Assembly: GCA_963751165.1 (NCBI GenBank)
Contig: CAVVTP010000011.1
Location: 164,995-228,994 of the forward strand
DNA length: 64,000 bases
Source of the DNA: an uncultured Alphaproteobacteria bacterium
Lineage (GTDB): Bacteria; Pseudomonadota; Alphaproteobacteria; Rhizobiales; Beijerinckiaceae
Direction of reading: 5' to 3'
Positions 2,907-63,849 of the stretch are shown here, piece after piece (within the stretch, counting starts at the first letter, position 1; each line of letters begins with the position of its first letter). A program made the position numbers and the translations under genes. Under the pieces are notes generated by a model, which saw only the letters and a program-made list of their open reading frames with translations, did no database searches and was not told where the DNA came from.

Positions 2907-2980
2907 AAGCGACGACGCGCGCCCCGTGTCCAAGCTCGGGCGCGGGGCGCGGCGCGGCGCCTGAAGGCGAGGGCGAGGCC

Positions 2981-6662: not shown

Positions 6663-6672
6663 CGAGGCCTCC

Positions 6673-19500: not shown

Positions 19501-20144
19501 CAGCGTCGCGCGCCTCGCCAGCGCCCCCCGCATGTCCTCCCCGTAGGTCAGGCTCGCGCCGATCCACAAGCGCCGGCCGAAGGCTTCACGCAGGCGGCTG
19601 AGAATCTTGCCCTCACCCCCAACCCCTCTCCCGCATAGCCCGTTGAGAGACGGGCGTCTTTCGACGCCCTTTGCGGGAGAGGGGCGCGCGTCCCTTCTCC
19701 CGCTTGCGGGAGAAGGTGGCCCGAAGGGCCGGATGAGGGGAAGCGCCACGATCTGCAGCCCCGCGCCATGCTCGAGGAGATCCTCGACCTGTAGTCGGCA
19801 CTCGCCCTTCGGCGCGCGCAGGTTTCCCGCGGTGAGAACCCGGCAGAGCCGGCCGTAGGCCACGCGGTCCTTCGGATAGGCGAGGAGATCGGGCGTCCCG
19901 TCGTCGAATGCGAGCCGCACGCCCGGAGCGATCCGCATACCCATGAGCGCCGCCTTGTTCTCGCGGGCGAAGACATGCGCGCGCACGACGCCGGCAAGCG
20001 TGTTGCGGTCGGCGATCCCGATCCCGGCGAGCCCGAGCTCCGCCGCCCGCGCGACCATCTCCTCGGGATGCGAGGCCCCGCGCAGGAAGGAGAAATTCGT
20101 CATCGCCGCCAGCTCGGCGAAGTGCGGCTCGAGGCGGATCATTT
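16593..20144 (-). CDS. dnaE2: Error-prone DNA polymerase DnaE2 (ImuC), reconstructed from two ORFs (17449-20229 and 16593-17681). Contains two mosaic-repeat insertions, and the frame changes across the second one.
   Basis: N-terminal PHP domain [24 protein letters not shown], with AGGAAAAATG-type context directly after a repeat hairpin. The polymerase core and the C-terminal [16 protein letters not shown] are collinear with ImuC. Gene order imuA-imuB-dnaE2. Confidence 0.85.
17540..17646. repeat. Mosaic palindromic repeat, solo cargo-less copy: H1 hairpin CCCTTCTCCCGCTCGCGGGAGAAGG, H2 hairpin GTCGCCGAAGGCGAC, module GGATGAGGGC, inverted module, terminal hairpin CCCCTCTCCCGCAAGGGGG. Lies inside dnaE2 at the point where the reading frame changes.
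   Basis: Direct reading of the sequence. The same modules recur at 19606, 20147/20577, 20941, 24244 and 61975. Confidence 0.7.
19606..19745. repeat. Mosaic palindromic repeat copy read through in frame inside dnaE2. Encodes ...[40 protein letters not shown]...
   Basis: Modules CTTGCCCTCACCCC, CCCCTCTCCCGCA[loop GCCCGTTGAGAGACGGGC]GCGGGAGAGGGG, CCCTTCTCCCGCTTGCGGGAGAAGG, GGCCCGAAGGGCC, GGATGAGGG. The 926-aa ORF runs through it without a stop. Confidence 0.7.
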
Positions 20145-20146
20145 TT

Positions 20147-20640
20147 CCCTTCTCCCGCTTGCGGGACAAGGCGGCGCGCCGAAGGCGCGCCTGATGAGGG
20201 CAAGAGCGCGCCTCACCATGACAAACCACATTTCGCGGCGATGGTCGCCAGCACGCTCTCGCGCGCCGTCAGAACGTCGCGATTACTGAATCGCAGGACC
20301 GTGTAGCCTTCGCGAGCGAGCCAGGCGACGCGAACAGAATCGCGTCGGCTCTCGGCATGTTGTGATCCATGCGCTTCCACGACGAGCCGGTGTGCGACGC
20401 AGAGGACGTCGACGATATAGGAGCCAATCGGCGCTTGCCGGCGAGACTTGAGCGCCTGCATGCGTCGGTCGCGCAGGGCGTACCAGAACCGCCGTTCGGC
20501 GTCGGTCGGATCGGTGCGCATCGTACGCGCGCGGGATTTTGCGGAAATGGGGACGTCGTTGCGCATGACTGTCTCCTCTCTTGCCCTCATCCAGCCGCGC
20601 TTCGCGCGCTCACCTCTCCCGCAAGCGGGAGAAGGGATCA
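20147..20640 (-). mobile_element. Candidate small mobile element: a DUF559 endonuclease gene flanked by terminal inverted repeats built from the mosaic-repeat modules, inserted between the imuB stop and the dnaE2 start
   Basis: Left end: CCCTTCTCCCGCTTGCGGGACAAGG, GGCGCGCCGAAGGCGCGCC, TGATGAGGGCAAGAG. Right end: CTCTTGCCCTCATCC, GCCGCGCTTCGCGCGC, CCTCTCCCGCAAGCGGGAGAAGGG. These are the reverse-complement order of the same modules. Solo copies such as 17540-17646 have the identical ends with only about 5 bp between them. Confidence 0.5.
20213..20566 (-). CDS. DUF559 (Vsr-like very-short-patch-repair endonuclease fold) domain protein
   Basis: About 117 aa: [35 protein letters not shown]...[23 protein letters not shown]...[22 protein letters not shown] matches the DUF559 family. 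Strong SD GAGAGGAGA 6 nt upstream. Same strand as imuB and dnaE2, so it can be co-transcribed from the LexA-controlled promoter. Confidence 0.7.
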
Positions 20641-27358: not shown

Positions 27359-27672
27359 AACCGTCTCCGGCGCCGATCGGCGCAATATGGAAGGGGAAAT
27401 GCGGGCTATCTAGGCCCGATGGGGCCAAGAAGGAAGGGCCCGCCTGTGCGATTGGCTCCCGAGCGCGCCGCGTCTCCGGCCGGTTGGACTGGAGGCGAAA
27501 GGCTGAAGCTCCTCAACGCGCGCTTTATGCGATTCAGCCGACTGTCAAATAAACCAAGTCACGACCTTATGACGATTTTAATGCCGATTTTTTGAACATC
27601 TGCCCGCGAATCGGTGTTATGAGAACGGCCCCGATGGGCTCCGGCCCGGGGAGTCGGGGAGGACAATGCGCA

Positions 27673-29463
27673 GTGCAAGCGACCGACATCGCCGATCCGA
27701 ACTATTTCCATAAGGTTGTCGACTGCCAGTGGGCCTGCCCGGCCCACACACCCGTCCCGGAATATATTCGCCGGATCGCGCAGGGCGACCATAACGGCGC
27801 CTATCTGATCAACTGGAAGTCGAACGTCTTTCCCGGCATCCTGGGCCGCACCTGCGACCGACCGTGCGAGCCCGCCTGTCGGCGGGGACGTCTCGAGGAG
27901 CAGCCGGTCGCCATCTGCCGGCTGAAGCGGGTCGCGGCCGACCGGAAGCAAAATATCGAAGCCCTGCTGCCGAAGGCGCCGCCGACGCTGAACGGCAAGC
28001 AAATCGCCTGTGTCGGAGCGGGGCCGGCGTCACTGACGGTCGCGCGCGACCTGGCGGCGATCGGCTACGCAGTTGTTGTTTTCGATTCCGATTCGCGCGC
28101 CGGCGGCATGATGCGCAGCCAGATTCCGAAATTTCGCCTGCCCGACGAAGTGATCGACGAGGAGGTCGGCTACGCGCTCTCGACCGGCGGCCGGTTCATC
28201 GCCGGACGGCGCATCAACAGCCTCAAGGCGCTGCTCGGCGAGGGCTACGACGCGATCTTCGTCGGTTGCGGCGCGCCGCACGGTCGTGACCTCGAGATCC
28301 CCGGCCGAGGGGAAGCCTCGAACAACGTACGGGTCGGGATCGAGTGGCTGGCCAGCGTGTTCTTCGGGCACACCCACTCGATCGGAAAGCGGGTCGTTGT
28401 CTTAGGCGGCGGCAACACCGCGATGGATTGCTGCCGGAGCGCGCGCCGCCTCGGCGGCGTCGACGTAAAGGTCGTGGTGCGCTCGGGCTACGCCGAGATG
28501 AAGGCCTCACCCTGGGAGAAGGAGGACGCGACCCACGAGGGCGTCGAAATCCTCAATTTCCTCGTCCCGAAGGCCTTCACGCACGACCAGGGACGTCTGA
28601 CCGGTGTCGTGTTCGAGAAGGTGAAGGCGGAGAAGGACAACCGCGGCCGGCGCCAGCTCACGCCAACCGGCGAGCCCGACATCCACATTCCTTGTGACGA
28701 CGTGCTGATCGCGGTCGGGCAGGAGAACGCTTTTCCCTGGATCGAGGCCGACCTCGGAATCGCCTTCGACCGCGGCGGAATGCCGTCGGTCGATCTTGTC
28801 ACCTTCCAGTCCAGCCTGCCCCACGTGTTTTTCGGCGGCGACGCCGCGTTCGGCCCGAAGAATATTATCACGGCGGTCGCACACGGCCACGACGCGGCGA
28901 TCTCGATTGACGCCTATTGCCGGGGCGTCGACACGCGCGTGCGTCCCCCGCCGACGACCAATCTCGTCAGCCAGAAGATGGGAATCAGCGACTGGTCCTA
29001 CGACAGCGCGATCACGCTCGACCGCCGGTTCGCGGTGCCGCAGGTCGAACGCGCCGCGGCGCTCAGGAACCTCCGCACGGAGGTCGAACTCGGTTTCACC
29101 GACGAGCAGGCGCTTGGGGAAGCAGGTCGCTGCCTCAACTGCGACGTCCAGACCGTCTTCTCGGCGCCCGCCTGCATTGAGTGCGACGCCTGCGTCGACA
29201 TCTGTCCGATCGACTGCATCTCCTTCTTGCCGAACGCGCCCGAAGAGGAGTTGCGCCAGTCGCTCAACGTACCGGCGCTCAATCTCGAGCAGGCGATTTT
29301 CGTTTCGGATCCCGTCAAGAGCCTGCGCATCATGGCGAAGGACGAGGATCTGTGCCTGCACTGTGGACTGTGCGCCGTCCGCTGCCCGACCGGAGCGTGG
29401 GACATGCAGAAATTTACTCTTGAAATGGCGCAAGCGGGGCGGGCATGCCAATCCAGGCCGTAA
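27673..29463 (+). CDS. Glutamate-synthase-small-subunit-like FAD/NAD(P)H oxidoreductase fused to a C-terminal 2x[4Fe-4S] ferredoxin domain (KorAB-associated)
   Basis: Two Rossmann motifs (ACVGAGPASLTVARDL; VVVLGGGNTAMDC). C-terminal CIECDACVDICPIDC and CLHCGLCAVRCP clusters. Probable GTG start at 27673 behind GGGGAGGA, whereas the listed ORF starts at 27592. Confidence 0.65.
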   Translation: MQATDIADPNYFHKVVDCQWACPAHTPVPEYIRRIAQGDHNGAYLINWKSNVFPGILGRTCDRPCEPACRRGRLEEQPVAICRLKRVAADRKQNIEALLPKAPPTLNGKQIACVGAGPASLTVARDLAAIGYAVVVFDSDSRAGGMMRSQIPKFRLPDEVIDEEVGYALSTGGRFIAGRRINSLKALLGEGYDAIFVGCGAPHGRDLEIPGRGEASNNVRVGIEWLASVFFGHTHSIGKRVVVLGGGNTAMDCCRSARRLGGVDVKVVVRSGYAEMKASPWEKEDATHEGVEILNFLVPKAFTHDQGRLTGVVFEKVKAEKDNRGRRQLTPTGEPDIHIPCDDVLIAVGQENAFPWIEADLGIAFDRGGMPSVDLVTFQSSLPHVFFGGDAAFGPKNIITAVAHGHDAAISIDAYCRGVDTRVRPPPTTNLVSQKMGISDWSYDSAITLDRRFAVPQVERAAALRNLRTEVELGFTDEQALGEAGRCLNCDVQTVFSAPACIECDACVDICPIDCISFLPNAPEEELRQSLNVPALNLEQAIFVSDPVKSLRIMAKDEDLCLHCGLCAVRCPTGAWDMQKFTLEMAQAGRACQSRP

Positions 29464-31277
29464 ACGATTTCGTCATTCGGTTCGCCAACGTCAACGGCTC
29501 CGGCTCGGCGAGCGCCAATCTCCTGTTCGCCCGGTCGATCCTGCGCATGGGCGTGCCGATCGCGCCGCGCAACATCTTCCCGTCCAATATCCAGGGCCTG
29601 CCGACCTGGTACGAGGTTCGAGTCAGCGAGCGCGGCTGGCTCGGCGCGCGCGGCGGCGCCGACATGCTGGTCGCGATGAACCCGCAGACTTTCGTTCAGG
29701 ACATCGCCGCGCTCAACTCCGGCGGCTATCTCTTCTACGATTCGACCCGCCCGCTGCCGCCCGCCGTATCGCGTGACGACATCGTGACGCTCGGCATGCC
29801 GCTCACCGAGATCTGCACCGCGCAATACCGAGACCCGCGGCAGCGCCAGCTCTTCCGCAACATCATCTATGTCGGCGCCCTCGCCGCGCTTCTCGACATC
29901 GACCTCGGCGTCATGGAGAAGCTCGCCGCCGAACAGTTCAAAGGCAAGGAGAAGCTGATCGAGGCCAACCAGCGGGCGCTGCGCCTCGGCCACGAGGAGG
30001 CGAGATCACGCTTCGCTTGCCCGCTCGACATTCGCGTCAGGCGCAGCGAGGCGGTCGGCGACCGTATCCTCGCCGAAGGCAATTTCGCCGCCGCGCTCGG
30101 CGCGGTCTACGGCGGAGCGACGGTCTGCGCGTGGTATCCGATCACGCCGTCGACCTCGGTCGCCGAGGCGTTCGAGCGCCACTGTGCGCGCTTTCGCATC
30201 GACGCGACGGGGAAGAAAAACTATGCCATCCTCCAGGCAGAGGACGAGATCGCGGCGATCGGGATGGTCGTCGGCGCCGGTTGGAACGGCGCGCGCGCCT
30301 TCACCGCCACCTCCGGTCCCGGCATCTCGCTGATGCAGGAGTTTTTCGGCCTCGCCTATTTCGCCGAAGTTCCGGTCGTGGTGTTCGACGTGCAGCGCGG
30401 CGGGCCATCAACCGGCATGCCGACCCGGACCCAGCAGTCGGATCTCCTGTCCTGCGCGTTCGCCTCCCACGGCGACACCAAGCACGTGCTGCTCATTCCC
30501 GACGACCCCAACGAAGTGTTCGAATTCGCCGCGCGGGCGTTCGATCTCGCCGAGCGACTGCAAACGGTCGTCTTCGTCATGCTCGACCTGGACCTCGGCA
30601 TGAATTCGCATCTCTGCGCGCCATTCAGATGGGATGACGCCCGGACTTACGACCGCGGCAAGGTGCTCTCGTTCGAGGAACTGGAAAAGGCGCCGAATTT
30701 CGGGCGCTACGACGATGTCGACGGCGACGGAATTCCTTATCGGACGCTGCCCGGCGGCCATCCGACGCGCGGCGCCTATTTCACCCGCGGCACCAGCCGC
30801 GATCGCTTTGCACGCTACACTGAGGAAGGCCTGCCCTATATCGACAACATGGAGCGGCTGGAGCACAAATTCGAGACCGCGCGCGCGATGCTGCCGCGGC
30901 CGGTCCTCAAGCGGGCGACGAAGCCGACGCGAATTGGCGTTCTGCATTATGGATCGACCGCCGCGCCGATGGACGAAGCCCAGCAGATGCTGGCTGGCGA
31001 GGGTCTTCATGTCGACACCCTCCGTATCCGCGCGTTTCCGCTGCCGCGCGAGGTCGCCGAATTCATCGACAGCCATGATCGGATCTTCGTGGTCGAGCAG
31101 AATCGCGACGCACAGATGCGCACGCTCATTTCGACCGATCTTGGCGTCGCCACGGACCGATGGACGCCGGTCCTCCACTTTAACGGTATGCCGACCTCCG
31201 CCCGTTTCATCCATCGCGAAATCGCCGCGTGCTTGCGCAAGCCGGTCGCCCCGCAACTTCTCGAGGCCGTCAAGTGA
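29445..31277 (+). CDS. korA: 2-oxoglutarate/2-oxoacid:ferredoxin oxidoreductase alpha subunit (fused gamma-alpha)
   Basis: 610 aa. Pyruvate-flavodoxin/ferredoxin oxidoreductase N-terminal and core domains (GNFAAALGAVYGGATVCAWYPITPST). Followed by a TPP-binding beta subunit. Confidence 0.8.
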   Translation: MPIQAVNDFVIRFANVNGSGSASANLLFARSILRMGVPIAPRNIFPSNIQGLPTWYEVRVSERGWLGARGGADMLVAMNPQTFVQDIAALNSGGYLFYDSTRPLPPAVSRDDIVTLGMPLTEICTAQYRDPRQRQLFRNIIYVGALAALLDIDLGVMEKLAAEQFKGKEKLIEANQRALRLGHEEARSRFACPLDIRVRRSEAVGDRILAEGNFAAALGAVYGGATVCAWYPITPSTSVAEAFERHCARFRIDATGKKNYAILQAEDEIAAIGMVVGAGWNGARAFTATSGPGISLMQEFFGLAYFAEVPVVVFDVQRGGPSTGMPTRTQQSDLLSCAFASHGDTKHVLLIPDDPNEVFEFAARAFDLAERLQTVVFVMLDLDLGMNSHLCAPFRWDDARTYDRGKVLSFEELEKAPNFGRYDDVDGDGIPYRTLPGGHPTRGAYFTRGTSRDRFARYTEEGLPYIDNMERLEHKFETARAMLPRPVLKRATKPTRIGVLHYGSTAAPMDEAQQMLAGEGLHVDTLRIRAFPLPREVAEFIDSHDRIFVVEQNRDAQMRTLISTDLGVATDRWTPVLHFNGMPTSARFIHREIAACLRKPVAPQLLEAVK

Positions 31278-32329
31278 GCTACCTCGCCAAGCCAAAGTTT
31301 CACCACCCGGCGATCCCGAGCAACGCGCTCGGCTTCACCCGCCGCGACTACGAAGGCTCGATGTCGACGCTCTGCGCCGGCTGCGGCCACGACTCGATCA
31401 CCGCGGCGATTGTGCACGCCTGTTTCGAGCTCGCCCTGCCGCCTCACCGCATCGCGAAGCTCAGCGGCATCGGCTGCTCGTCCAAGACGCCGACTTACAT
31501 GCTCGGCCAGAGCCACGGCTTCAACTCGGTGCATGGGCGCATGCCGTCTGTGTTGACCGGCGCCAATCTCGCCAACCGCGAGCTCGTGTATCTTGGCGTT
31601 TCCGGCGACGGCGACACGGCCTCAATTGGGTTCGGCCAGTTCGCCCATGTGATGCGTCGCGGCGTCAACATGGTCTATATCGTCGAGAATAACGGCGTCT
31701 ACGGCCTCACCAAAGGGCAGTTCTCGGCGACCGCCGATCGCGGTTCGAAAAGCAAGAAGGGCGTGCGCGCCGCCGATGAGCCAATCGACCTCGTCGCCGT
31801 CGCGATCCAGCTCGGCGCGACCTTCGTGGCGCGCAGTTTTTCGGGCGACAAGGCGCAGCTCGTGCCGTTGATCAAGGCGGCGTTCGAGCATCGCGGCGCC
31901 GCCTTCATCGACGTCATTTCGCCCTGCGTCACCTTCAACAACCACGAGGGCTCGACCAAGAGCTACGACTACGTGCGCGAGCACAATATTGCGGTCAGCT
32001 CGCTCGACTTTATCACCGGCAAGGAAGCGATCGCGATCGACTACCCCGAGGGCGCGGCCCATCCGGTGACGATGCACGATGGAACGACCCTTGTCTTGCG
32101 CAAGCTCGACGCCACTCATGACCTCGGAGACCGAGCGGCGGCACTGACCATGCTTGCAGGCTGCCGCGCTACCGGCGAGATCCCGACGGGCCTCATCTAC
32201 GTCGACCGGGAGGCCGAGGAGTTGCACGACACCATGAACACGACGCTGCGCCCACTGAACGAACTGACCGAAGCCGAGCTTTGTCCCGGCTCCAAGGCGC
32301 TCGGGGCGATCAACGCGTCGATGAGGTGA
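31274..32329 (+). CDS. korB: 2-oxoglutarate/2-oxoacid:ferredoxin oxidoreductase beta subunit (TPP-binding)
   Basis: GTG at 31274 overlaps the korA stop (GTGA). CAGCGH...GIGCSS...GDGDTASIG...YIVENNGVYGLTKGQ TPP motifs. Confidence 0.8.
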   Translation: MSYLAKPKFHHPAIPSNALGFTRRDYEGSMSTLCAGCGHDSITAAIVHACFELALPPHRIAKLSGIGCSSKTPTYMLGQSHGFNSVHGRMPSVLTGANLANRELVYLGVSGDGDTASIGFGQFAHVMRRGVNMVYIVENNGVYGLTKGQFSATADRGSKSKKGVRAADEPIDLVAVAIQLGATFVARSFSGDKAQLVPLIKAAFEHRGAAFIDVISPCVTFNNHEGSTKSYDYVREHNIAVSSLDFITGKEAIAIDYPEGAAHPVTMHDGTTLVLRKLDATHDLGDRAAALTMLAGCRATGEIPTGLIYVDREAEELHDTMNTTLRPLNELTEAELCPGSKALGAINASMR

Positions 32330-36262: not shown

Positions 36263-37607
36263 CTCAAACACCGATCGACCGACTGGTAGGCTGGCGCCGC
36301 GAGGCGCCCGGTGCGGTCTGACCCGCACTCCGATCGACCGGCCGTGTCTTTCCCCGGACCTGTCGGCCGCCCGGGAACACCTCGCGGTGAGGCTTTGCCT
36401 CGCCGATGCCTGTGACCCGAGAAGGGCCTGACCTCCATGGTCTCGTGACTGTCCTGTCCGCGCATTCGGTCCCGGCAAAGCCATTCGTGCACGACAAGCC
36501 GGAGGCTGGGAATGGCGATCATCGAAGGGCAGGCGCGTCGTATCGTCGGCGGCGTCGATACGCACAAGGATCTTCACGTCGCAGCAGTCGTGGATGAGCA
36601 GGATCGCGTTCTCGGAACGCGGTCGTTCGCCACGACCCGACAAGGCTATCGCCAGATGCTGGCCTGGATGCAATCCTTCGGCGAGTTGCGCCGCATCGGA
36701 ATCGAATCGACCGGCAGTTACGGCGCAGGGCTTTTGCGCTTCATGCAGCAGGCGAAGGTTCCGGTGCTGGAGGTCACCACCCCCGACAAGCAGGATCGAC
36801 GTCGGCGCGGCAAGAACGACGATCTCGACGCCCAGAATGCCGCTCACGCCGCCTTTGCAGGCCAGCGGACCGTGACCCCGCGAAGCCGGGACGGCATGAT
36901 TGAATCCTTACGGATTCTGACGGCTTGCCGGAGGACGGCGGTCAGCGCCAGGCGCGTCGCCCTGCAAATGATCCATAACACGATCGTGTGCGCCCCTGAC
37001 GGCCTGCGCGATCAACTGCGCGGCCTGACGCGCATGCAGCTCGTCCGGACGTTGGCGTCCTCGCGGCCGGATCTGACAGCCTATCGCGATCTGGATTCCG
37101 CCTATCGCATCGGCCTCAAGTCTCTCGCGCGGCGTTACCTCGAGCTGCACGACGAGATTGCGGACCTCGACGCCATGATCGCCGCCATCGTCGACGAGCT
37201 GGCGCCAAACCTCGTCGCGCGTAATTCGATCGGCCATGTCGGAGCCGCTCAGCTTCTCCTTACGGCCGGCGACAATCCCGAGAGATTGCGCTCGGAATCC
37301 AGTTTCGCGTCGCTGTGTGGCGTGAGTCCGGTTCCTGCATCCTCGGGAAAAACGGTCAGGCATCGGCTCAACCGCGGCGGAGATCGCGCCGCCAACAGCG
37401 CGCTCCACATCATCGCCATCGGACGCCTGCGGACCGACCAGAAAACGAAAGACTATGTCGCTCGCCGGATCGCCGAGGGACATTCCAAACTCGACGCCAT
37501 ACGCGCTTTGAAGCGCTACCTCGCCAGAGAAATCTTCACACTCATCATCCAACGACGCAGAGAGATCAACGCCACCCAAATCGCCGCTTGACAAACAGAA
37601 GGGCGTC
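36227..37607 (+). mobile_element. IS110-family insertion sequence (about 1.38 kb, no IRs) inserted into the IS3 orfB
   Basis: Boundaries inferred from the break in IS3 OrfB (NTD | QGSQFT). Carries an intact 359-aa IS110 transposase. Confidence 0.65.
36512..37591 (+). CDS. IS110-family transposase
   Basis: N-terminal DEDD domain (VGGVDTHKDLHVAAVVD) and C-terminal ...SGKTVRHRLNRGGDRAANSALHIIAIGRLR motif. Confidence 0.85.
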   Translation: MAIIEGQARRIVGGVDTHKDLHVAAVVDEQDRVLGTRSFATTRQGYRQMLAWMQSFGELRRIGIESTGSYGAGLLRFMQQAKVPVLEVTTPDKQDRRRRGKNDDLDAQNAAHAAFAGQRTVTPRSRDGMIESLRILTACRRTAVSARRVALQMIHNTIVCAPDGLRDQLRGLTRMQLVRTLASSRPDLTAYRDLDSAYRIGLKSLARRYLELHDEIADLDAMIAAIVDELAPNLVARNSIGHVGAAQLLLTAGDNPERLRSESSFASLCGVSPVPASSGKTVRHRLNRGGDRAANSALHIIAIGRLRTDQKTKDYVARRIAEGHSKLDAIRALKRYLAREIFTLIIQRRREINATQIAA

Positions 37608-38342: not shown

Positions 38343-38424
38343 AGCTTGAACGCGTGCGGCGACCAGTCGCCCCGACCCACGCCCGGAATGCACCACAGCA
38401 TGCAAAGCGGCTCGATCGCCCTAG
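38333..38424 (-). pseudogene. 3' end (...RAIEPLCMLWCIPGVGRGDWSPHAFKLLR*) of a COG2085 NADP-dependent oxidoreductase gene, cut off by the IS1380 insertion
   Basis: The frame continues exactly from the 5' part at 40063 across the IS, giving ...GAVEAA|RAIEPLCMLW. Confidence 0.65.
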
Positions 38425-40062
38425 CCGCATTTCTCACAGCTCCATGGCGGCGCGCTTGCTGTTTGAGCGCGGCCGCGTTGCCCAAGCCTTGATGGCAGAA
38501 AGGCCTTGTGGCGGGAATTACAGGCGCACGGCGGCGGCCGCCGGATCGGCGGCGCTATTTTGGGTTATGTCGACTGTGCGCTGTCTGGTTCGTCAGATCG
38601 CCGCTGCGGCGAGCCGGACGTGGGCGATCCGGAATTCGCGCGGGTTGGGGAAGGATGAGGCCATGGCGAGCTTGATGCGGCGGACCGAGATTCGCACCAG
38701 CGCGCCGATCTTGAGCAACTTGAGACGGATGGTTGCGCAATTGGCCTTGGCGAACTGCGTGCGCTTGAGGCCGATGCGGCGCACGGCGCACAAGAGAATG
38801 TAGGCGAAGGAGGCAAACCACAGCCGCAGCTGATTGGCGCGCATGGTTGCGGTCGAGGTGCGGTCGGCGAACAGGTCGGCTTGGCATTCCTTGATCCGGT
38901 TCTCCATGTCGCCGCGGGCGCAATAGACCTTCTCGTAGAGACGCCGGGCGCCGGTCTCTTCTCGGCTGAGCGAAGTGACGACGAAGCGCGGGTTGGCCTC
39001 GCCTTGCGTCCATTCCGCCTTGGCGATGACCGGCGCTCGCGCGACCAACTGTCCAGCGTGGTCCACGAGAACTCCTTGAAGCGGCGCACCGGCTTTCCGC
39101 TCGCCTCCGCCGCAGCCTTGGCCGCGGCCAACTCGCGCTCGATCATCGCGGCGAGACGGGCGTTGCGCGCCAGACCGAACAGATAATCGACCCGGTTGGC
39201 CTCGCACCAGGCCATCAACGCTTCGCGGGCGAAGCCGGAATCGGCGCGCAGCAAGATGCGGGTGTGCGGCCAGCGAGCGCGGATCTGCGCCACGATGCGG
39301 GCGATCTCCTCCACCGCCCCGGCGGAAGCGTCGATGTCGGCTTTGCGCAGCTTCGCCGCCAGGAGATGGCGGCCGCAGAACACGTAAAGCGGCAGATAAC
39401 AATAGCAGTCGTAATAGCCGTGGAAGAACCGGCCCTCCTGATGGCCGTGCAGCGGGTCGTCGGTGGCGTCGAGATCGAGGATGATCTGCTTCGGCGGGCG
39501 GCGATGCGCCTCGACGAACAGGTCGACCGGCAGCCGCTCGATCATCGCCGCATCGTGGCTGATCTTGTGATAGCGGGTCGGCAGCGGCCGGCTGAGCTCG
39601 AGCCGGTTCAGCGTCGACTTGCCCGCCACCGCAGCGCAATCCTCGCGCCGCGCTTCCAGCTTGCCGGCGAGGATCGCCATCACCGGGTCATGGCGCAGGT
39701 GATCGTGATCGTTGAGGTCCTCATAGCCGAGCGCCAGTCCGAACACCCGCTGGCCGATCAGCGTCTTGACCTCGTGCTCGATCAGGTCCTGGCGGCGCGC
39801 GTCGCGGAAGCAGGCGGCGAACCGATCGATGAGACCGATCGCCCGGTCGGTTGAGCCAAGCAGCGTCGCGCCGGCGTCCGAGGTGATGCTTCCGCCGTCG
39901 AAAGCAGCCACCACCCAACGTCCTTCAACCGGTTCAAATTCAAACAAATCCGGGATACAGTCTGTTTGCATCGAGGCACCTCGCGAGTCAAGCTAAGCTG
40001 TTGCTGCACAACATACTTTCGCTGATTCGGGCCTCGATGACCTACTGTTTGAGAAATCCGGG
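38425..40062 (-). mobile_element. IS1380-family insertion sequence (1638 bp) flanked by a 4-bp CTAG target duplication
   Basis: IRs CCGCATTTCTCACAGC... / ...CTGTTTGAGAAATCCGGG (reverse complement CCCGGATTTCTCAAACAG). CTAG is directly duplicated at 38421-38424 and 40063-40066. Removing the IS restores the host gene. Confidence 0.75.
38565..39971 (-). CDS. IS1380-family transposase with a frameshift near 39050-39100
   Basis: N-terminus MQTDCIPDLFEFEPVEGRWVVAAFDGGSITSDAGATLL...DATDDPLHGHQEGRFFHGYYDCYCYLPL. The C-terminal DDE part (...LYEKVYCARGDMENRIKECQ...) is in a second frame (ORF 38593-39639). Confidence 0.75.
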   Translation of the reverse strand: MQTDCIPDLFEFEPVEGRWVVAAFDGGSITSDAGATLLGSTDRAIGLIDRFAACFRDARRQDLIEHEVKTLIGQRVFGLALGYEDLNDHDHLRHDPVMAILAGKLEARREDCAAVAGKSTLNRLELSRPLPTRYHKISHDAAMIERLPVDLFVEAHRRPPKQIILDLDATDDPLHGHQEGRFFHGYYDCYCYLPLYVFCGRHLLAAKLRKADIDASAGAVEEIARIVAQIRARWPHTRILLRADSGFAREALMAWCEANRVDYLFGLARNARLAAMIERELAAAKAAAEASGKPVRRFKEFSWTTLDSWSRERRSSPRRNGRKARPTRASSSLRSAEKRPAPGVSTRRSIAPAATWRTGSRNAKPTCSPTAPRPQPCAPISCGCGLPPSPTFSCAPCAASASSARSSPRPIAQPSVSSCSRSARWCESRSAASSSPWPHPSPTRANSGSPTSGSPQRRSDEPDSAQST

Positions 40063-40616
40063 CTAGCCGCCTCGACCGCTCCCATGTCCTCGACGTCCCA
40101 GCCGAACTGGTCGCAGATCGACCCGACCGTCCTCTTGGCGGCGACGTCGTTTCCGCAAATGAACATGGTCGGCCGTCCGCCGGCGAATTGCGGGTTGATC
40201 ATCTGCGCGGCGCCGACCGAATTGAACGCCTTGACGAAATAAGCATGCGGGTAAGCGCTTTGCAGCTGCTCCATCAGCAACTCCTTCATCGTGGTGAAGA
40301 ACGACAGGACGCCGTTGACCGGCGGCCCGCCGCCGATCGGATTGCAGGCGTCGATCACCGGCTTGCCGTCGAGCGCGGTACCGCCGCACTGATTGAGCGC
40401 CTCGAGCGCCGCCTCGCCCGCGATCGCGAGCACGACAACCTCGCCGAAGGCCGCGGCCTCGCCCATCGACTTCACCTGCGCGCCGGGGTTCTTCGCCGCC
40501 CACTCCTGGAGTTTTCCGGAATCGCGGGTTCCGATCGCGACCTCATGGCCGTGTTTCAAAAAGCCGCCGGCAAGCGTCTGACCGACGACGCCCGAGCCGA
40601 TGACGCCTACTTTCAT
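40063..40616 (-). CDS. COG2085-type NADP-dependent oxidoreductase (F420-reductase/ProC-like dinucleotide-binding), 5' part. The gene is interrupted by IS1380 near its 3' end.
   Basis: MKVGVIGSGVVGQTLAGGFLKHGHEVAIGTRD Rossmann N-terminus. The listed ORF tail after ...GAVEAA is IS-derived. Confidence 0.7.
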
Positions 40617-40764
40617 GGATCGTCTCCCTGGTGTCGGCCCCGCTCAGCATGCGCGGCTCCGGCAAGGTTAACCTGGGATGGGGCAAGCGGCTTCACAAGG
40701 GCGGAATTCCCCAGCGGCGCCGCGTTGCCCGGTTGCCGCCTGCCACGCACTGCCATACGTAACG

Positions 40765-40927
40765 CTCGATGGTTCTCTTCGGGGATCAGAAGGGAACATG
40801 GTGCAGGCCGAAAGGCCATTGCCGTGGCTGCCCCGCAACTGTAAGCGGTAAGATGACGCCACTTGTGATCACTGGGCAACCGGGAAGATCGGCGTCTGTC
40901 GTCGACCCGCGAGCCAGGAGACCTGCC
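40765..40927 (+). ncRNA. Cobalamin (adenosylcobalamin) riboswitch
   Basis: Conserved blocks in the canonical order: AGAAGGGAAC...GGTG...GCTGCCCCGCAACTGTAAGCGG...GCCACTtG (B12 box)...GGGAAG...AGCCAGGAGACCTGCC. A hairpin plus T-run (TGCTGTTTCCCCAAACAGCA...CTCGAGTTTTTT) follows at about 40990-41045. Confidence 0.85.
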
Positions 40928-41179
40928 ATCGCTCGTGCAGCCGATCTCGGGCGAGGTGACCGATGGTTTGTCTCTTTAGCGGCATCACCCGGCTTCGTGC
41001 TGTTTCCCCAAACAGCATGCGAGGGTGTCATGCCTGGAATTGTCTCGAGTTTTTTGAGGCCAAGTCGGAGTTTCCTGATCGGCATATTGGGCCCACCTCG
41101 GCGATGTCTCCTTAAAGACATGTCGGCGCCCCTTCTCGCGCCGAGGCCTGACGCGTCTTAACACCAGAGGGTTGCAAAA

Positions 41180-42814
41180 ATGGCCCGACGAGCCCGTGAC
41201 GTTCTGCTCGACATCCTCCGCGACGAGGGGATCACCCACGTATTCGGCAATCCCGGCTCGACCGAAATGCCGCTGATGGACGCGCTCGTCGACGCGCCGG
41301 ACATCACCTACGTCCTCGGCCTCCAGGAGGCCACGGCGGTCGGCATGGCGGATGGGTGGGCGCTGGCGTCGGGGCGGGCGGGCTTCGTCAGCCTGCATGC
41401 GATGGGCGGACTCGGCAATGCAATGGGGGTGCTGGTCGCCTCCAAGGCGAGCGAGACGCCGCTTGTCATCACCGCGGGACAGCAGGACACCCGTCACCTG
41501 ATGACCGAGCCCTGGCTGTCGGGCGACCTCGTCGCGCTCGCCGCGCCAGTGACCAAATGGGCGAAGGAAGTTCGGCGCGGGGAGGACGTCGGGCAAGCGC
41601 TGCGCCGCGCCTTCACGGTCGCGCGCACCGCGCCTTCAGGACCGGTGTTCCTGTCGCTGCCGATGGACGTCCTCGACCAGGAGGTGAGCGGCAAGACCCC
41701 GCGGGCCTCCGCTCCGCCGCGCCTCGGGGCCTCGCCCGATGCGGCGCGCCTTGCCGAGCTTCTCGCAACACTCGATCCGGACAAGGTGGTCGTTTTGCTC
41801 GGCGACGACCTGTCGGCCTCGATCAGCGCGGGCTTGACCGCCTTCGTCGAGGCGGGCGGATTCCCGGTCTGGGGGACGCAGCTTACCTCACGCGTCGCCT
41901 TTCCCTCGGGCCATCCCTCACGGGCGGGCGTCATGAAGCCGGACTTCGCCGTGATGCGCGAGCATTTCGCCAACGCCCAGGCGATCGTGCTCGTCGGCGG
42001 ACGCGCTTTCGTCGCTTATCCCTATCGCGCCGCCGAGCCGGTGCCGGAAGGCGTCGCCATTCTGCACATTGCCGACAATCCGGAGGCGTTCGGCCGCGAG
42101 CAGGCCGCCGACCTAGCGCTCCTCGGCGACGTTGGCCTGACGCTCTCCGCCGCGGCGAAGCGACTCGCCGACATTGTCGACCGCGACCGGGTTGAAGTCT
42201 TGCTCGCCGCACGCGGCGCGAAGAAGCGCGCCGTGATGGAGGCGTTGCGGGCGGAGATTCTTGCCGAGACCGACTCGCCGCTTTCTGCGGACGCAGCGGT
42301 GCTGGCGGCGCTCGATGCGTTGCCGGCAACCGCGCTGATCGCAAACAACTCCGCCGCCACCTTCGGCCGGGTGCAAGACCTGCTCATCACCCGGCCCGGT
42401 CGCTACTTCTTCGCCCGCGGCGGGGTGCTCGGCTGTAACATGCCCGCCGCCATCGGCGCGTCCTTGGCCGGCGCGGACTGGGTCGCCTCATTCGTTGGCG
42501 ACGGCGGGGCGATGTATTCGCCGCAGGCCCTTTGGAGCGCCGCGCATTACCGGGCGCGGGTGATCTTCTTCGTGTTCAATAATCGCCGCTACGGCGTGCT
42601 GCAAAACGTCGCCACGAGCCTCGGCTATTCCAACGCCGTCGCCGGTCGGTTCGTCGGCATGGCTATCATCGAGCCGGCGATCGACTTTCAGGCGCTTTCG
42701 GCGTCGATGGGCGTGCCAGCGGTTCGGGCCGACGATCGCGCGGCGATCGGCGCCGCGGTCGTGAAGGCGCTCGAGCGGGACGGGCCGAGCCTGATCGAGA
42801 TCGGGATAAGGTAA
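41180..42814 (+). CDS. Thiamine-diphosphate-dependent enzyme of the benzoylformate decarboxylase / acetolactate-synthase-like family
   Basis: N-terminal MARRARDVLLDILRDEGITHVFGNPGSTEMP. ThDP motif GDGGAMYS...NNRRYG. 544 aa. Confidence 0.8.
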   Translation: MARRARDVLLDILRDEGITHVFGNPGSTEMPLMDALVDAPDITYVLGLQEATAVGMADGWALASGRAGFVSLHAMGGLGNAMGVLVASKASETPLVITAGQQDTRHLMTEPWLSGDLVALAAPVTKWAKEVRRGEDVGQALRRAFTVARTAPSGPVFLSLPMDVLDQEVSGKTPRASAPPRLGASPDAARLAELLATLDPDKVVVLLGDDLSASISAGLTAFVEAGGFPVWGTQLTSRVAFPSGHPSRAGVMKPDFAVMREHFANAQAIVLVGGRAFVAYPYRAAEPVPEGVAILHIADNPEAFGREQAADLALLGDVGLTLSAAAKRLADIVDRDRVEVLLAARGAKKRAVMEALRAEILAETDSPLSADAAVLAALDALPATALIANNSAATFGRVQDLLITRPGRYFFARGGVLGCNMPAAIGASLAGADWVASFVGDGGAMYSPQALWSAAHYRARVIFFVFNNRRYGVLQNVATSLGYSNAVAGRFVGMAIIEPAIDFQALSASMGVPAVRADDRAAIGAAVVKALERDGPSLIEIGIR

Positions 42815-42831
42815 GGCGGAGCGCCCCCGCC

Positions 42832-43605
42832 TTAGCGCTTTGGCGCGACCACGGCAAACATCGCGTTCTGCGGATCATGCGCCTGCACGATCCATTGCCC
42901 GCCGGGAACCTCATGCGGCCCGTTGATGATCCGCCCGCCGCGCGCCGTGATCCGCCCCGCCGCCGCCTCCGCGCCGTCGACATTGAAATAGTAGAGCCAG
43001 AACGCCGTCGGCGTCTGCGGCATGCGGGTCATGATGCCGCCTTGCTCGCCATGGCGGGTGTTGAACAAATGGTAGACGCCGATCGGTCCCATGTCGAACT
43101 CGCCGTCCTTGTTCCAGCCGAAGAAGCTGGAATAGAAATCGAAGGCCTTGCCGCCGTCGTCGGCGTGCAACTCATGCCAGCCGACCGTGCCCAGCGCGCC
43201 CGACGCCGCGGGCGGCGGCGGGTTCCCCTCCAAGTCGCGGAAGAGCATAAAGGTTCCGCCGTAAGGGTCGGCGACCACGGCGAATCGGCCGAATTCCGGG
43301 AATGTCGGTCGGCGCCTTGAACACCTTTCCGCCGGCCGCCATCAGCTTCGGCAGCGCGGCGTCGACGTCTTCGACCCAGATGTAGCCCATCCATGACGGC
43401 CTTGCGCCCATCGACTTGGCGTCGGGGGAATCGTCATCATTCCGGCGATCGGCGTCGTGCCGGCCGACACCACCTTGTAGGGGAAGTCGGCCATTCCGCT
43501 GTCCTCCGCCGTCCAGCCGAGCACATGCGTATAGAACCCGACCGCGGCGGCAAGGTCGTCGCCCATATACTCGTACCAGACGAATTTCCCGATCGGCGTC
43601 GACAT
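42832..43605 (-). CDS. Two-domain VOC (glyoxalase/bleomycin-resistance/dioxygenase) family protein, split by at least 2 frameshifts
   Basis: Three consecutive minus ORFs (43342-43605, 43172-43411, 42832-43278), each with a VOC fold (KFVWYEY...FYT.VLGW; ...GYIWVEDVDAA...; ...VGWHELHADD...FY...FGW). Confidence 0.6.
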
Positions 43606-54181: not shown

Positions 54182-54991
54182 CTACGCTTTCGAGCCGGGG
54201 GCCAGCGCAACGGCGGCCTCCGCCGTGAGCAGGAGAAATGTGAAAGTCTCCTGCAGGTACAATCGGACAGCCGCATCGGTGTGGCTCAAATAGCCGATGG
54301 ATATGTCCTGGCCGATGTGCAAGCCGAAGTCGCCGCCACGCGTCGTGAGCACGAATGCGCCTGTAATCGCCGGGGCCCAGATGATCTCGCCGTCCACGAG
54401 GCGCTTGATATGCTCCAGCACCGGATATCCATGGTCCCTCGTTTCGCTGAGTCCGGTATAGGCGTCGGCGCTCAGCAAGACCGAGTAGGGACCGTTGACG
54501 CCGACAAGACGCAATTGGCTAACCGCTTGCGCGATGGCGTCGGGGTAGTCCCTGACGTCGGCAGGGAGGGTCATTGCGGCATTGCTGGTTCCCTGGCGGA
54601 TCCCTTCGATGCCGGCGGCGGAATAGCCTTCGAAGATGGCGCGGTCCTCGGCAAAGGCGAGCCGGCGCGCGGCTTCCTTCGCGGGCTGCCAATCCGAGTC
54701 GTTCGCGCCACGGGCCACGTCGTCGATCTGCTGACGGTCGAGATCGAATGGCGCGCGCAGTTCGACGAGGGCTTTGACCTCGCGCTGGTGCGCCAGGATA
54801 TTGTCGCCCGGGGCCTCGACATTGCGCAGATGGCCGGTCCCGACCGCCGACAACGCAACGCCGCCGGGTCCCTGCACGTCCACGACTCGGCGGCCCGCGA
54901 GATACCGCTTGAGGGTGCGCGTCGTCTCTTGCTCGATTTGAGACCATGCCTCGTCGGAAATAGGGGCGAGCTCGCGGTGAAGATTATTCAT
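54182..54991 (-). CDS. Family 1 encapsulin nanocompartment shell protein
   Basis: MNNLHRELAPISDEAWSQIEQETTRTLKRYLAGRRVVDV...VELRAPFDLDRQQIDDVARG...IGYLSHTD is collinear with linocin-M18-type encapsulins. Start overlaps the Dyp stop. Confidence 0.85.
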   Translation of the reverse strand: MNNLHRELAPISDEAWSQIEQETTRTLKRYLAGRRVVDVQGPGGVALSAVGTGHLRNVEAPGDNILAHQREVKALVELRAPFDLDRQQIDDVARGANDSDWQPAKEAARRLAFAEDRAIFEGYSAAGIEGIRQGTSNAAMTLPADVRDYPDAIAQAVSQLRLVGVNGPYSVLLSADAYTGLSETRDHGYPVLEHIKRLVDGEIIWAPAITGAFVLTTRGGDFGLHIGQDISIGYLSHTDAAVRLYLQETFTFLLLTAEAAVALAPGSKA

Positions 54992-56077
54992 GCGATGGGT
55001 CTCCTTTGAGAGATCCGATGCCGAGCGAACCGTCGCGCGCCGACGTATCCGGTTGCGAGGGTGCAACGACGACGTCGGCAGGCGACGCTGCTGTCGCGGG
55101 CTCGTCGTCCGCAACGCTCTCGAGAAATGTGGCGGATGGGGCGAAGAAGAGACTTCCCGTGACGGCGCGACTGAAATCCAGCAGCCGATCGTAGTTGCCA
55201 GTAGGCAGGCCGACGAACATGTTCGACAGCATCTGCTCGATCGTTCGGGGCGAACGCGCGTAGCCGATGAAATAGGTGCCGAATTCGCGCTGCGCGACAT
55301 TGCCGAACGCCATATTGTCGCGAAGAATTTCTTCTCTTCGCCGCCCTCCACGATCGTGGTCAACGCATTGTGGGCGAACGTCGGCTTGACCGCGTCGTCG
55401 AGTTCGATGTCGGAAAGTTTGGTGCGCCCGATGATGCGCTCCTGCGCCTCGTTCGGCAGCGCGTCCCAGGCCATTAGATCGTGAAGGTATTTTTGCACCA
55501 GCACATAACTGCCGCCGGCGAACGCCACATCCTCGATGTCCACCAACGCGGCGTCGATCGCCGCCTGACCCATTGGGTTCTCCGTTCCGTCGACAAAGCC
55601 GATGAGATCACGATCATCGAAATATTTGAACCCATGCACTTCGTCGACGGGCGAGACCGCGTCCCCGAGGCGCGTCATGATCTGCTTCGCCAGTTCAAAA
55701 CACAGGTCCATGCGCTTCGAACGGATATGAAAAAGGAGATCACCCGGCGTGGCGACCGCATGCCGAGAGCCAGCCCGGATTTCGCGGAACGGATGCAATT
55801 CGGCCGGCCGCGGCGAACCGAATAGCCTGTCCCAGGCCTCGGACCCGAAACCCATCACGCAAGACAGGCTTCCCTCGATATCGCGGAAGCCCACGGCGCG
55901 CAGAAGTCCCGGCAGGTCGCCGCAGAATGACCGGACCATGTCGCGGTTGGCTGGGCCGGGGTTCATGGTCGCGACCAGAAAGATCGCGGCGCGGGTCAGA
56001 GGCTGAACCACCGCCTGGGGGATGGCCGACAGCCCATCCTTGGCTCCGGACGAGTTCAACGGCTCGAACTCCATCAA
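54984..56077 (-). CDS. Dyp-type peroxidase encapsulin cargo with a C-terminal targeting peptide. Single-base frameshift near 55315.
   Basis: N-terminal Dyp core in the 631-aa ORF frame (...GFVDGTENP...). C-terminal part in ORF 54984-55313 (MAFGNVAQREFGTYFIGYARSP...DGSLGIGSLKGDPSHE). SLGIGSLK is the canonical encapsulin cargo-loading peptide. Confidence 0.8.
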
Positions 56078-57924: not shown

Positions 57925-58623
57925 TCATATCGGCAGGCCTTGAAGTAATTGACGCATTCGGCGGGTTTGAAAAATTTCGGCGCAGGCGTCGAGGGCGTTC
58001 ATCAGGCCTGAGACGGTGCGCTCGGCAATCTTGCGCAGGAAGGCTTTCAGCTTGGAATAGGCCTTTTCGATGGGGTTCATGTCGGGGCTGTAGGGCGGCA
58101 AATATCGTAACTCGGCTCCAGCGGCCTCGATGAGTTTCTCGACCCTTGGCCCCTTGTGGCTCGACAGATTGTCCATGACGACGACGTCGCCCTTCGAGAG
58201 CGTGGGGACGAGACATTTTTCCGCCCAGTCCTCGAACGTGGCGGCATTCATCGGCTTGTCGAAAGCCTTCTGCGCCACGAGGCCCGAAAGGCGCAGCCCG
58301 GCCACGAGGGTGATCGTCTTATAATGGCCATGCGCAACGCCGACGCGCAGCCGCCGCCCGCGCCGGCAGCGTCCGCTTTTGCGCGCCAGATTGGTGGAAG
58401 CCCCGGTTTCATCGATGAAAACGAGCTTCCTCGGATCGAGGTCGAGTTGCGCCCCAAACCACGCCTGACGCTGCTTCAAGACGTCCGGGCGCTGCTGCTC
58501 CTCGGCTGCCGGCTGTCCACCGTGACCGTCCAAGCCTGTTCTCCCCGTTCGACCCTCACGACGTTCAGGCTTGGCGCGGGTGACCATATAACTGATGTTT
58601 TCATGACGCCCGTGCTGCCGCAT
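57925..58623 (-). pseudogene. IS630/Tc1-mariner-family transposase, DDE domain only (N-terminal HTH missing or frameshifted)
   Basis: ...LVFIDETGASTNLARKSGR...YLPPYSPDMNPIEKAYSKLKAFLRK is the DDE(D) catalytic region of IS630 transposases. Confidence 0.65.
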
Positions 58624-59830: not shown

Positions 59831-62893
<3,063 letters not shown>

Positions 62894-62961
62894 CGGACCT
62901 CGACGACAATTTTCGGGCTTCGAGCGCGAATCGCGCTTGCGCGAGCCGGGTCTCGATGCTA

Positions 62962-62976
62962 GAACAAATAAAGAAC
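62962..62976. promoter_or_regulatory. LexA (SOS) box GAACaaataaaGAAC in the divergent uvrA-ssb intergenic region
   Basis: Exact GAAC-N7-GAAC, the reverse complement of the alphaproteobacterial GTTC-N7-GTTC consensus. Confidence 0.75.
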
Positions 62977-63168
62977 AAGGGGAAGGCGCCCCGTGCGCCC
63001 TGCCTCCGGTTCTCCCTAATGTAGGCGAGGCGGCGCTCCTTCCCAAGCGTCGCGCGCGCCGAAGTGTGGACAAGTCTGGTTGTCGAGCGCGCTGACGGCC
63101 TCGCCTGCGCCGCTTTCGGCTATGCATGATGAAACGAGCAGCGCCGCAGGGCGCGTCAGGAGCAGACC

Positions 63169-63666
63169 ATGGCGGGCAGCGTCAACAAGGTGATCCTCGT
63201 CGGCAACCTGGGCAAGGACCCGGAAGTGCGCCGGCTGAATTCCGGCGATCCGGTGGTGAGTTTCTCCCTCGCCACCTCGGACTCCTGGCGCGACAAGACC
63301 ACAGGCGAGCGAAAGGAACGCACCGAGTGGCACAACATCGTGATCTTCAACGAGAACCTCGGTAAAATCGCCGAGCAGTACTGCAAGAAGGGCACGAAGG
63401 TTTACGTCGAAGGCCAGCTGCAGACGCGCAAATGGCAGGACCAGAGCGGCAACGACCGCTATACCACCGAGATCGTGCTGACCCGCTTCCGCGGCGAACT
63501 GCAACTGCTCAACTCCCGCGGCGGCGGCGAGGCCCGCGACAGTTTTCCCGATGAGAACGGCTCCCGCAGCTTCGCCCGCCCGTCTATTGGCGGCGGCGAG
63601 CGCAAGCCGGCGCTCTCCGGCGGCGTCGGAGGGCCCGGGCCGATCGACGACGATATTCCATTCTGA
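63169..63666 (+). CDS. ssb: Single-stranded DNA-binding protein
   Basis: [21 protein letters not shown]...OB fold...Gly-rich tail ending in the acidic DDDIPF. Confidence 0.9.
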
Positions 63667-63849
63667 GTGTCGTGCGCAGATAGGGCGTCGGCTCGAACGG
63701 CCGAGCGCGCGCCCGCCCCCTTCTGGGATGACGATGGTCTGGGATCGCGCCAATCCTAGCTTGGGCGATCCTCGTATCCTTAAACCAGACACTTAACCTC
63801 TTGCTTCACTATCCGCGGCGTGATACTGAAGTGTACGCGTAACTATTCA

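Follow-up and report, generated by a model that had tools for sequence, protein, structure and literature searches.

The stretch of DNA analysed here (the window; 64,000 nucleotides of contig CAVVTP010000011.1, assembly GCA_963751165.1, from an uncultured alphaproteobacterium of the Beijerinckiaceae) carries a cobalamin riboswitch directly in front of a gene for a thiamine diphosphate (ThDP)-dependent enzyme of the benzoylformate decarboxylase (BFD) family. The riboswitch is very probably an ordinary one of the NiCoT type, stranded by the deletion of its own NicO gene, and its proximity to the ThDP gene a deletion scar. In this lineage the riboswitch would control a cobalt(/nickel) permease of the NicO/NiCoT family, with cobalt uptake repressed when vitamin B12 is plentiful. 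The permease gene would then have been almost wholly deleted, leaving the promoter region, the aptamer, the expression platform, the Shine-Dalgarno (SD) sequence, the start codon and the first 23 and last 26 nt of the gene, and a second deletion of approximately 182 nt would have shortened the spacer to the next gene. This next gene, presumably the neighbour already before the deletions, as it is in the closest relative, would be that of the ThDP enzyme, which now lies 235 nt behind the aptamer because the two deletions removed the intervening DNA. The observations carrying this explanation are the aptamer itself, the collinearity with the closest relative, the deletion junctions mapped at base resolution, the rule that NicO follows the riboswitch in its relatives (16/16), and the lack of a riboswitch at the other ThDP orthologues.

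The first-pass annotation of the window had described a well-formed cobalamin riboswitch with its conserved blocks, and the Rfam search bore this out. The Cobalamin model RF00174 matched positions 40753–40944 (+) with 107.6 bits (E 5.4e-26; curated gathering score 31.5 bits) over model positions 1–189 of 189, identifying a full-length aptamer of the adenosylcobalamin (AdoCbl) type and the sole Rfam match in the window. The B12 box AGCCAGGAGACCTGCC begins at 40912 and GGGAACATGGTG is found upstream of it, so that both the conserved B12 box and the GGGAA...GGTG core are present. A covariance model built from this riboswitch lineage (R1, from alignment A1) gave the window aptamer 204 bits, and the aptamer was collinear with and closely similar to those of the closest relative and of the leaders of NicO in 15 further metagenomic contigs. 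Compared with these 16 relatives, it has seven private changes at otherwise invariant columns, among them G for A at 40789, T for C at 40776 and a C-run near 40830 that is shorter by one C. At least one of the seven concerns the length of a homopolymer, and the excess falls short of significance. In this test of relaxed constraint, the window aptamer had 16 differences from its nearest neighbour, and more divergent sequences showed 5–12 private changes.

The closest relative of the locus is a 4.4-kb JGI contig, L084, which carries the closest ThDP protein (P0002, 92% amino acid identity). It contains, in this order, an RF00174 match (859–1051, 121 bits), a NicO gene (1138–2208; PF03824, E 3e-103), a spacer of 285 nt in which no terminator was called, and the ThDP gene (2493–4127). 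BLAST showed the window to be collinear with L084 along the whole contig, the matching stretches being 91–97% identical. Window positions 40486–40731 correspond to L084 3–248 (92% identity; 5' part of an oxidoreductase gene and its upstream region), 40727–41057 to 833–1165 (aptamer, platform and NicO start), 41098–42823 to 2410–4136, and 42828–42918 to 4321–4411 (97% identity). Missing from the window are 1,022 nt (L084 1161–2182) of the 1,071-nt NicO gene, and the 194 nt of L084 2216–2409 have shrunk to 12 nt (41086–41097), corresponding to the spacer deletion of approximately 182 nt. No other NicO was found in the 64 kb of the window (best tblastn E 0.07). A leader unique to the window had first been suggested by BLAST of the aptamer, leader and upstream region, which found no matches in 83 loci of ThDP orthologues; this was overturned by L084.

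The first-pass annotation had also named what would speak against its proposed link: relatives with the riboswitch in front of a different gene at this position and the ThDP gene elsewhere. L084 agrees with the first half of this, NicO being the gene behind the riboswitch, and not with the second, as the ThDP gene is adjacent there too.

The expression platform of the former NicO gene (40945–41029, +) has remained in place, with 112/117 identical positions to L084 over 40936–41052. It holds the hairpin GCTGTTT-CCCC-AAACAGC and the SD sequence GAGGG (41021–41025). In the consensus fold the segment 40945–40962 pairs with the SD/AUG segment at approximately 41024–41039; every pair of this helix is invariant and hence without covariation support, the invariance being partly due to the 24-mer used in the search for relatives, which fixed the 3' strand. 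The single-sequence fold likewise buries the SD sequence and the AUG (z = -1.65, not significant). Judging from these folds, B12 binding probably leads the platform to sequester the SD sequence and AUG.

Both ends of the NicO coding sequence were recognized behind the platform. The 5' remnant, the start codon and first 23 nt of the coding sequence, occupies 41030–41052 (+): window 41020–41052 is identical to L084 1128–1160 in 33/33 positions, spanning the NicO SD sequence, the ATG (41030; L084 1138) and these 23 nt. The 3' remnant (41054–41085, +) consists of the last 26 nt of the gene and 7 nt beyond, and has 27/33 identity to L084 2183–2215. Its assignment is supported by position and collinearity in the alignment, and the former NicO stop codon TGA (41076–41078) is now out of frame. 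A chimeric remnant reading frame of 43 codons (MPGIVSSF...PDAS*; 41030–41161, +) is predicted from the translation; it starts with the former NicO ATG and ends with the TAA at 41159–41161, 18 nt ahead of the ThDP ATG. Thus only 23 and 26 nt of NicO are left in the window, where an intact NicO/NiCoT gene would be expected to follow a platform including its SD sequence and AUG.

The hairpin and downstream U-run of the first-pass annotation were read differently after the junctions had been mapped. The run of six T (41050–41055, +) is physically there, composed of the TTT of the NicO 5' remnant, the junction base 41053 and the TT of the 3' remnant. It thus sits inside the former NicO coding sequence, exactly at the deletion junction, and the intact relatives have GAGTTTCCTGAA or similar at this position and no such run. 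The nearest predicted hairpin ends 11 nt before it, and a terminator scan found no terminator-like site on the + strand in 40550–41250, so that neither the run nor the platform is of the intrinsic-terminator kind.

Since both ends of the NicO coding sequence remain in the window, the window represents a deletion and L084 not an insertion. The reversed direction, in which the riboswitch directly before the ThDP gene would be ancestral and L084 would have gained NicO, is extremely improbable. The riboswitch stands beside a ThDP gene in the window and L084 only, so the polarity has to be read from internal evidence. Had NicO been inserted, the two ends of the gene would not be found in the 'empty' site, yet the window has the NicO SD sequence, ATG and first 23 nt together with the last 26 nt and the former stop. 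In all 15 other relatives, the riboswitch runs into NicO at that same ATG.

A further difference between the two sequences lies upstream of the riboswitch. The divergent intergenic region (40617–40752) presumably holds the promoter of the riboswitch transcript; a sigma-70 scan found no promoter. A 584-bp segment of L084 (249–832), with a GNAT gene (Acetyltransf_8 in Pfam) between the oxidoreductase gene and the riboswitch, is absent from the window, where 40690–40731 aligns to L084 208–248 and 40727–40760 to 833–866. GTTGCC is present on either side of this indel, which hints at microhomology-mediated loss or gain of the GNAT segment.

The 15 metagenomic contigs were retrieved with a 24-mer that reaches from the platform into the beginning of NicO. 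RF00174 was found in all 15 (102–125 bits) and was followed by NicO from the same ATG in every one, making 16/16 relatives when L084 is counted. Eight of the 15 NicO genes were full length, one was frameshifted and six were cut by the contig end, three of these within approximately 100 nt of the start. The ThDP gene had no match in these contigs, in which 0.6–4.8 kb of downstream sequence was available, and the deletion allele was not seen among them. In one contig (L097), a DUF1636 gene lies 14 nt after NicO on the same strand, followed by a gene of the nitroreductase family (possibly BluB-like) and then by genes of the CobB, TP_methylase (corrin-methylase) and CbiD families, all within approximately 5 kb past the NicO stop. 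This adjoining cob cluster links the riboswitch–NicO module to B12 synthesis.

An established class of NiCoT permeases, regulated by AdoCbl riboswitches, is predicted to import cobalt for B12 synthesis (PMC7689651). The window riboswitch shares with the RF00174 riboswitches of these permeases (HoxN/NhlF/NicO, TC 2.A.52) the same full-length aptamer and B12 box, and its 16 close relatives directly precede a NicO-family permease (PF03824), one unit abutting cob genes (CbiD, CobB, corrin methylase). It differs in lacking its cognate gene, apart from the 23 nt of the 5' end and 26 nt of the 3' end, and in now facing an unrelated enzyme gene.

Two of the 15 contigs had features of their own. L092 has a second, different B12 riboswitch match (3129–3203, +; AdoCbl, RF01482, 55 bits, part of the model), oriented away from the riboswitch of NicO, so that two B12-sensing leaders would stand divergently next to each other. 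L095 has the frameshifted NicO, with the shift at approximately residue 108, and a match to group II intron domains D1–D4 (5931–6026, +; RF02003, 63 bits) near the contig end.

The gene now behind the riboswitch is intact. The first-pass annotation had placed a co-oriented ThDP enzyme of 544 amino acids, of the BFD family, approximately 250 nt downstream; the open reading frame (ORF) was confirmed at 41180–42814 (+), with 235 nt between the aptamer end and its ATG. The domains PF02776, PF00205 and PF02775 were all above cut-off, and these PYR, middle and PP domains together with the GDGG...NN motif place the protein in the ThDP superfamily of the POX/ALS/BFD type. The best NCBIfam match was NF005485 (benzoylformate decarboxylase) with 350 bits, below the equivalog cut-off of 493, and the best match in PDB was the BFD entry 4q9d (E 7e-76). 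An exact-sequence look-up of the protein (P0001) found no record.

The comparison with BFD suggested in the first-pass annotation gave a divided result at the active site. The catalytic residues of BFD are Ser26, Glu47, His70 and His281 (P. putida numbering). In the alignment to the PDB BFD chains, Ser26, Glu28, Glu47, His70 and the GDG...NN motif are kept and Tyr stands at the His281 position, so that the full catalytic set is not present. Compared with benzoylformate decarboxylase (MdlC; NF005485; PDB 1BFD, 4Q9D), the enzyme therefore has the same three-domain ThDP fold family and its best NCBIfam and PDB matches there, but falls below the equivalog cut-off and has Tyr in place of His281, as in the 4Q9D entry.

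The ThDP gene has also retained the proximal part of its own 5' region (41098–41179, +; 82 nt), which aligns to L084 2410–2492. It keeps its own SD sequence AGAGGG at 41166–41171. A palindrome ATGTCT-N6-AGACAT (41104–41121) lies approximately 60–75 nt before the start codon and is largely conserved in L084 (ATGCCT...AGACAT); it could be an operator for the gene's own regulation.

The orthologous group of the ThDP protein is abundant in Hyphomicrobiales, with full-length orthologues of 61–92% amino acid identity in more than 80 loci. The orthologue scan covered one genome per GTDB species, giving 80 loci (61–90% amino acid identity); three further metagenomic contigs (L084, L085 and L086) also carry the gene. 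Among the genomes were those of Roseiarcus fermentans, Rhodopseudomonas palustris BisB18 and JSC-3b, R. faecalis, Rhodoblastus and Astrobacterium. In every locus of the 80 genomes, DNA similarity to the window ended at the start and stop codons of the ThDP gene. Gene neighbourhood was not conserved among the loci examined, and no shared 5' motif was found among the orthologues: the 5' regions were unrelated to one another, and only L084 shared the proximal 82 nt.

Rfam detected a cobalamin riboswitch in one of 52 orthologue loci, L084, where NicO stands in between; this is the only ThDP orthologue locus with a cobalamin riboswitch within approximately 4 kb. None was found by Rfam in 15 diverse loci, in five of the closest genomes or in 30 further close relatives, the species-representative loci checked in this way numbering 48 of 80, nor in L085 and L086. 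A regular-expression screen for the B12 box and core motif found none in the 83 orthologue loci. Over 85 sources (795 kb), model R1 recovered only the window (204 bits) and L084 (219 bits); scores elsewhere were 17 bits or less, and none of the 80 species-representative loci had a match. One borderline R1 match (L035, 16.8 bits) was not confirmed by Rfam. The riboswitch–ThDP pairing is therefore not a conserved regulatory unit, since the riboswitch is limited to L084 among the orthologues and their 5' regions are unrelated.

The proposal of the first-pass annotation, a ThDP enzyme acting as a B12-repressed bypass, did not hold against these results, as no riboswitch was present at the other orthologues and in L084 NicO separates the riboswitch from the ThDP gene. 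That the enzyme truly belongs to the B12 regulon through selection, for instance as a B12-independent bypass repressed by B12, is accordingly very improbable. The aptamer is intact, riboswitch and gene are co-oriented at a distance of 235 nt with no detectable terminator between them, and L084 likewise has the ThDP gene behind riboswitch and NicO, across a spacer without a called terminator, so that co-transcription is possible in a narrow lineage. Against this stand the 0/80 species-representative loci with a riboswitch (Rfam on 48 of them, R1 and B12-box screen on all), the Rfam nulls in L085 and L086, the mutually unrelated 5' regions, and the lack of a ThDP match in the other riboswitch–NicO contigs. 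Moreover, the SD sequence and AUG in the platform are those of NicO, while the ThDP gene has its own SD sequence. No cob gene or gene of a B12-dependent enzyme was found among approximately 40 ORFs of the window scanned, and a literature search for cobalamin riboswitches together with BFD-family enzymes found no paper linking them. The 'orphan riboswitch' of the literature denotes a riboswitch of unknown ligand, a different concept from a stranded riboswitch.

The B12-independent isozymes of the B12 regulon (metE, nrdAB/nrdEF) are superficially alike, having a riboswitch upstream of an enzyme gene without B12 use of its own. Their pairings are conserved across many taxa, with the platform acting on the enzyme gene's own SD sequence or terminator, whereas the window pairing occurs in one genome and its platform SD sequence and AUG belong to the deleted NicO. 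There is no sign of selection on the new riboswitch–ThDP pairing. The ThDP gene is without visible link to B12 metabolism and is a bystander, not the cognate target of the riboswitch.

The first-pass annotation had alternatively considered the pairing accidental in a rearranged locus, pointing to an IS1380 insertion approximately 700 bp away. The accident was confirmed in spirit, its cause being the 1,022-nt NicO deletion and the spacer deletion of approximately 182 nt instead of IS1380. The insertion sequence (IS) itself was found as described, its end lying 687 nt from the aptamer. It is an element of approximately 1.65 kb (38421–40066, -) with imperfect terminal inverted repeats CTAG-CCGCATTTCTCA and CTAGCCCGGATTTCTCA at 38421–38436 and 40050–40066, as expected of IS1380, and has BLAST homology to annotated rhizobial IS1380 copies over approximately 38634–40074. 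The transposase gene (38565–39971, -) matched NF033539 with 271 bits (cut-off 180). Its Pfam match is limited to amino acids 13–314 of the 468-amino-acid ORF, so that it may be frameshifted.

A rearrangement mediated by this element, joining riboswitch and ThDP gene, has next to no likelihood. The locus is clearly in flux, with IS1380 at approximately 38421–40066 and a transposase gene of the IS110 family at 36512–37591. The IS end is, however, separated from the aptamer by the divergent oxidoreductase gene, and the order of oxidoreductase and riboswitch, and of riboswitch and ThDP gene, is the same in L084. The 4.4 kb of L084 contain no IS, although its oxidoreductase ends after 44 codons, short of the IS site of the window. 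Neither IS sequence nor an inverted repeat was found at the NicO junction, and IS1380 was rejected as the cause of the pairing as it is not at any deletion junction.

Another explanation would be that the deletion is an assembly or consensus artefact of the metagenome-assembled genome, the real organism having an intact NicO. Many genes of the window are split over adjacent or overlapping ORFs, suggesting an error-prone consensus: a DnaE2-type polymerase (two ORFs; 16593–20229, -), a UvrA-like ABC ATPase (several; 59831–63792, -), a VOC/glyoxalase gene (two; 42832–43605, -) and an ABC ATPase (5342–7380, +). These suggest either small indel errors of assembly or widespread pseudogenisation, and the absence of the deletion allele from the 15 metagenomic contigs would also agree with an artefact. 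Typical consensus errors are indels of 1–2 nt, whereas the window has three clean deletions (1,022, approximately 182 and 584 nt) with flanks 91–100% identical, and collinearity with L084 extends to either side of the junction. An artefact is thus very improbable.

Several points weigh against the stranding of the riboswitch by loss of NicO, or limit it. The intact order of riboswitch, NicO and ThDP gene was documented by L084 alone, so that the ancestral state is read from this one contig and the remnants in the window. The NicO 3' remnant is short, 82% identical, and has a BLAST E value of 0.04 on its own. With so many split genes in the assembly, small indels near the junction, the frame of the remnant ORF and the exact length of the T-run are uncertain. 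The aptamer is still well formed at 107.6 bits and without obvious decay, which would also fit a retained function. The view is limited to 64 kb of the genome, and a further cobalt importer may be present elsewhere. Finally, no terminator separates the riboswitch from the ThDP gene, which may thus come under B12 control incidentally.

As no terminator could be detected, transcription starting at the former NicO promoter would probably continue past the remnant ORF of 43 codons and reach the ThDP gene. If that gene responded to B12, the response would then be a non-adaptive side effect via polarity or mRNA stability. It is unlikely that through such read-through the ThDP gene is now driven or modulated by the stranded riboswitch and the promoter belonging to it, making a BFD-family enzyme B12-responsive in this one lineage. 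If true, this would be a riboswitch caught being rewired onto a new gene by deletion, and if the ThDP gene's own promoter lay in the lost stretch of approximately 182 nt, the old NicO promoter could be its main promoter.

With the stranding of the riboswitch as the preferred explanation, the element is of a known kind, the cobalamin riboswitch of a NiCoT cobalt permease, and the suggested link between B12 and the ThDP enzyme is an artefact of the deletion. Read by itself, the locus would suggest a new ThDP pathway under B12 control; L084 and the 15 metagenomic contigs show it to be a cobalt-permease riboswitch minus its gene. A riboswitch regulon inferred from adjacency in a single genome can thus badly mislead when the cognate gene has been deleted. 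The locus also offers a natural example of deletions stranding regulatory RNAs beside new genes, one possible route to regulatory rewiring.

The divergent oxidoreductase gene (39993–40616, -) is of the NADP/F420 type (PF03807, E 2.9e-16), and the right end of IS1380 at approximately 40066 lies inside the 3' end of its ORF. The native coding sequence probably runs from 40616 down to approximately 40067, the last 24 or so codons being IS-derived, and IS1380 thus appears to have truncated the gene. On the other side, convergent to the ThDP gene, the VOC/glyoxalase-family gene (42832–43605, -) is split into ORFs 43605–43342 and 43278–42832, PF00903 being found in both. Further transposase genes are present at 36512–37591 (+), the one of the IS110 family, and at 57925–58623 (-), of the DDE_3/IS630 type, so that at least three IS families occur in the 64 kb.

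Two other gene regions of the window were also recorded. At 54182–56077 (-), one ORF of 631 amino acids combines the two domains of a DyP peroxidase, of which the C-terminal one is only partly matched, with a full encapsulin shell domain (Linocin_M18). DyP-peroxidase cargo and encapsulin shell are usually encoded by two adjacent genes, and the ORF reflects either a true fusion or an artefact of a frameshift or of the consensus. A 2-oxoacid:ferredoxin oxidoreductase cluster (POR, POR_N and TPP_enzyme_C subunits) lies at 27592–32329 (+) beside a Fer4/pyridine-nucleotide-disulphide oxidoreductase, and forms a second, unrelated ThDP enzyme system of the window.

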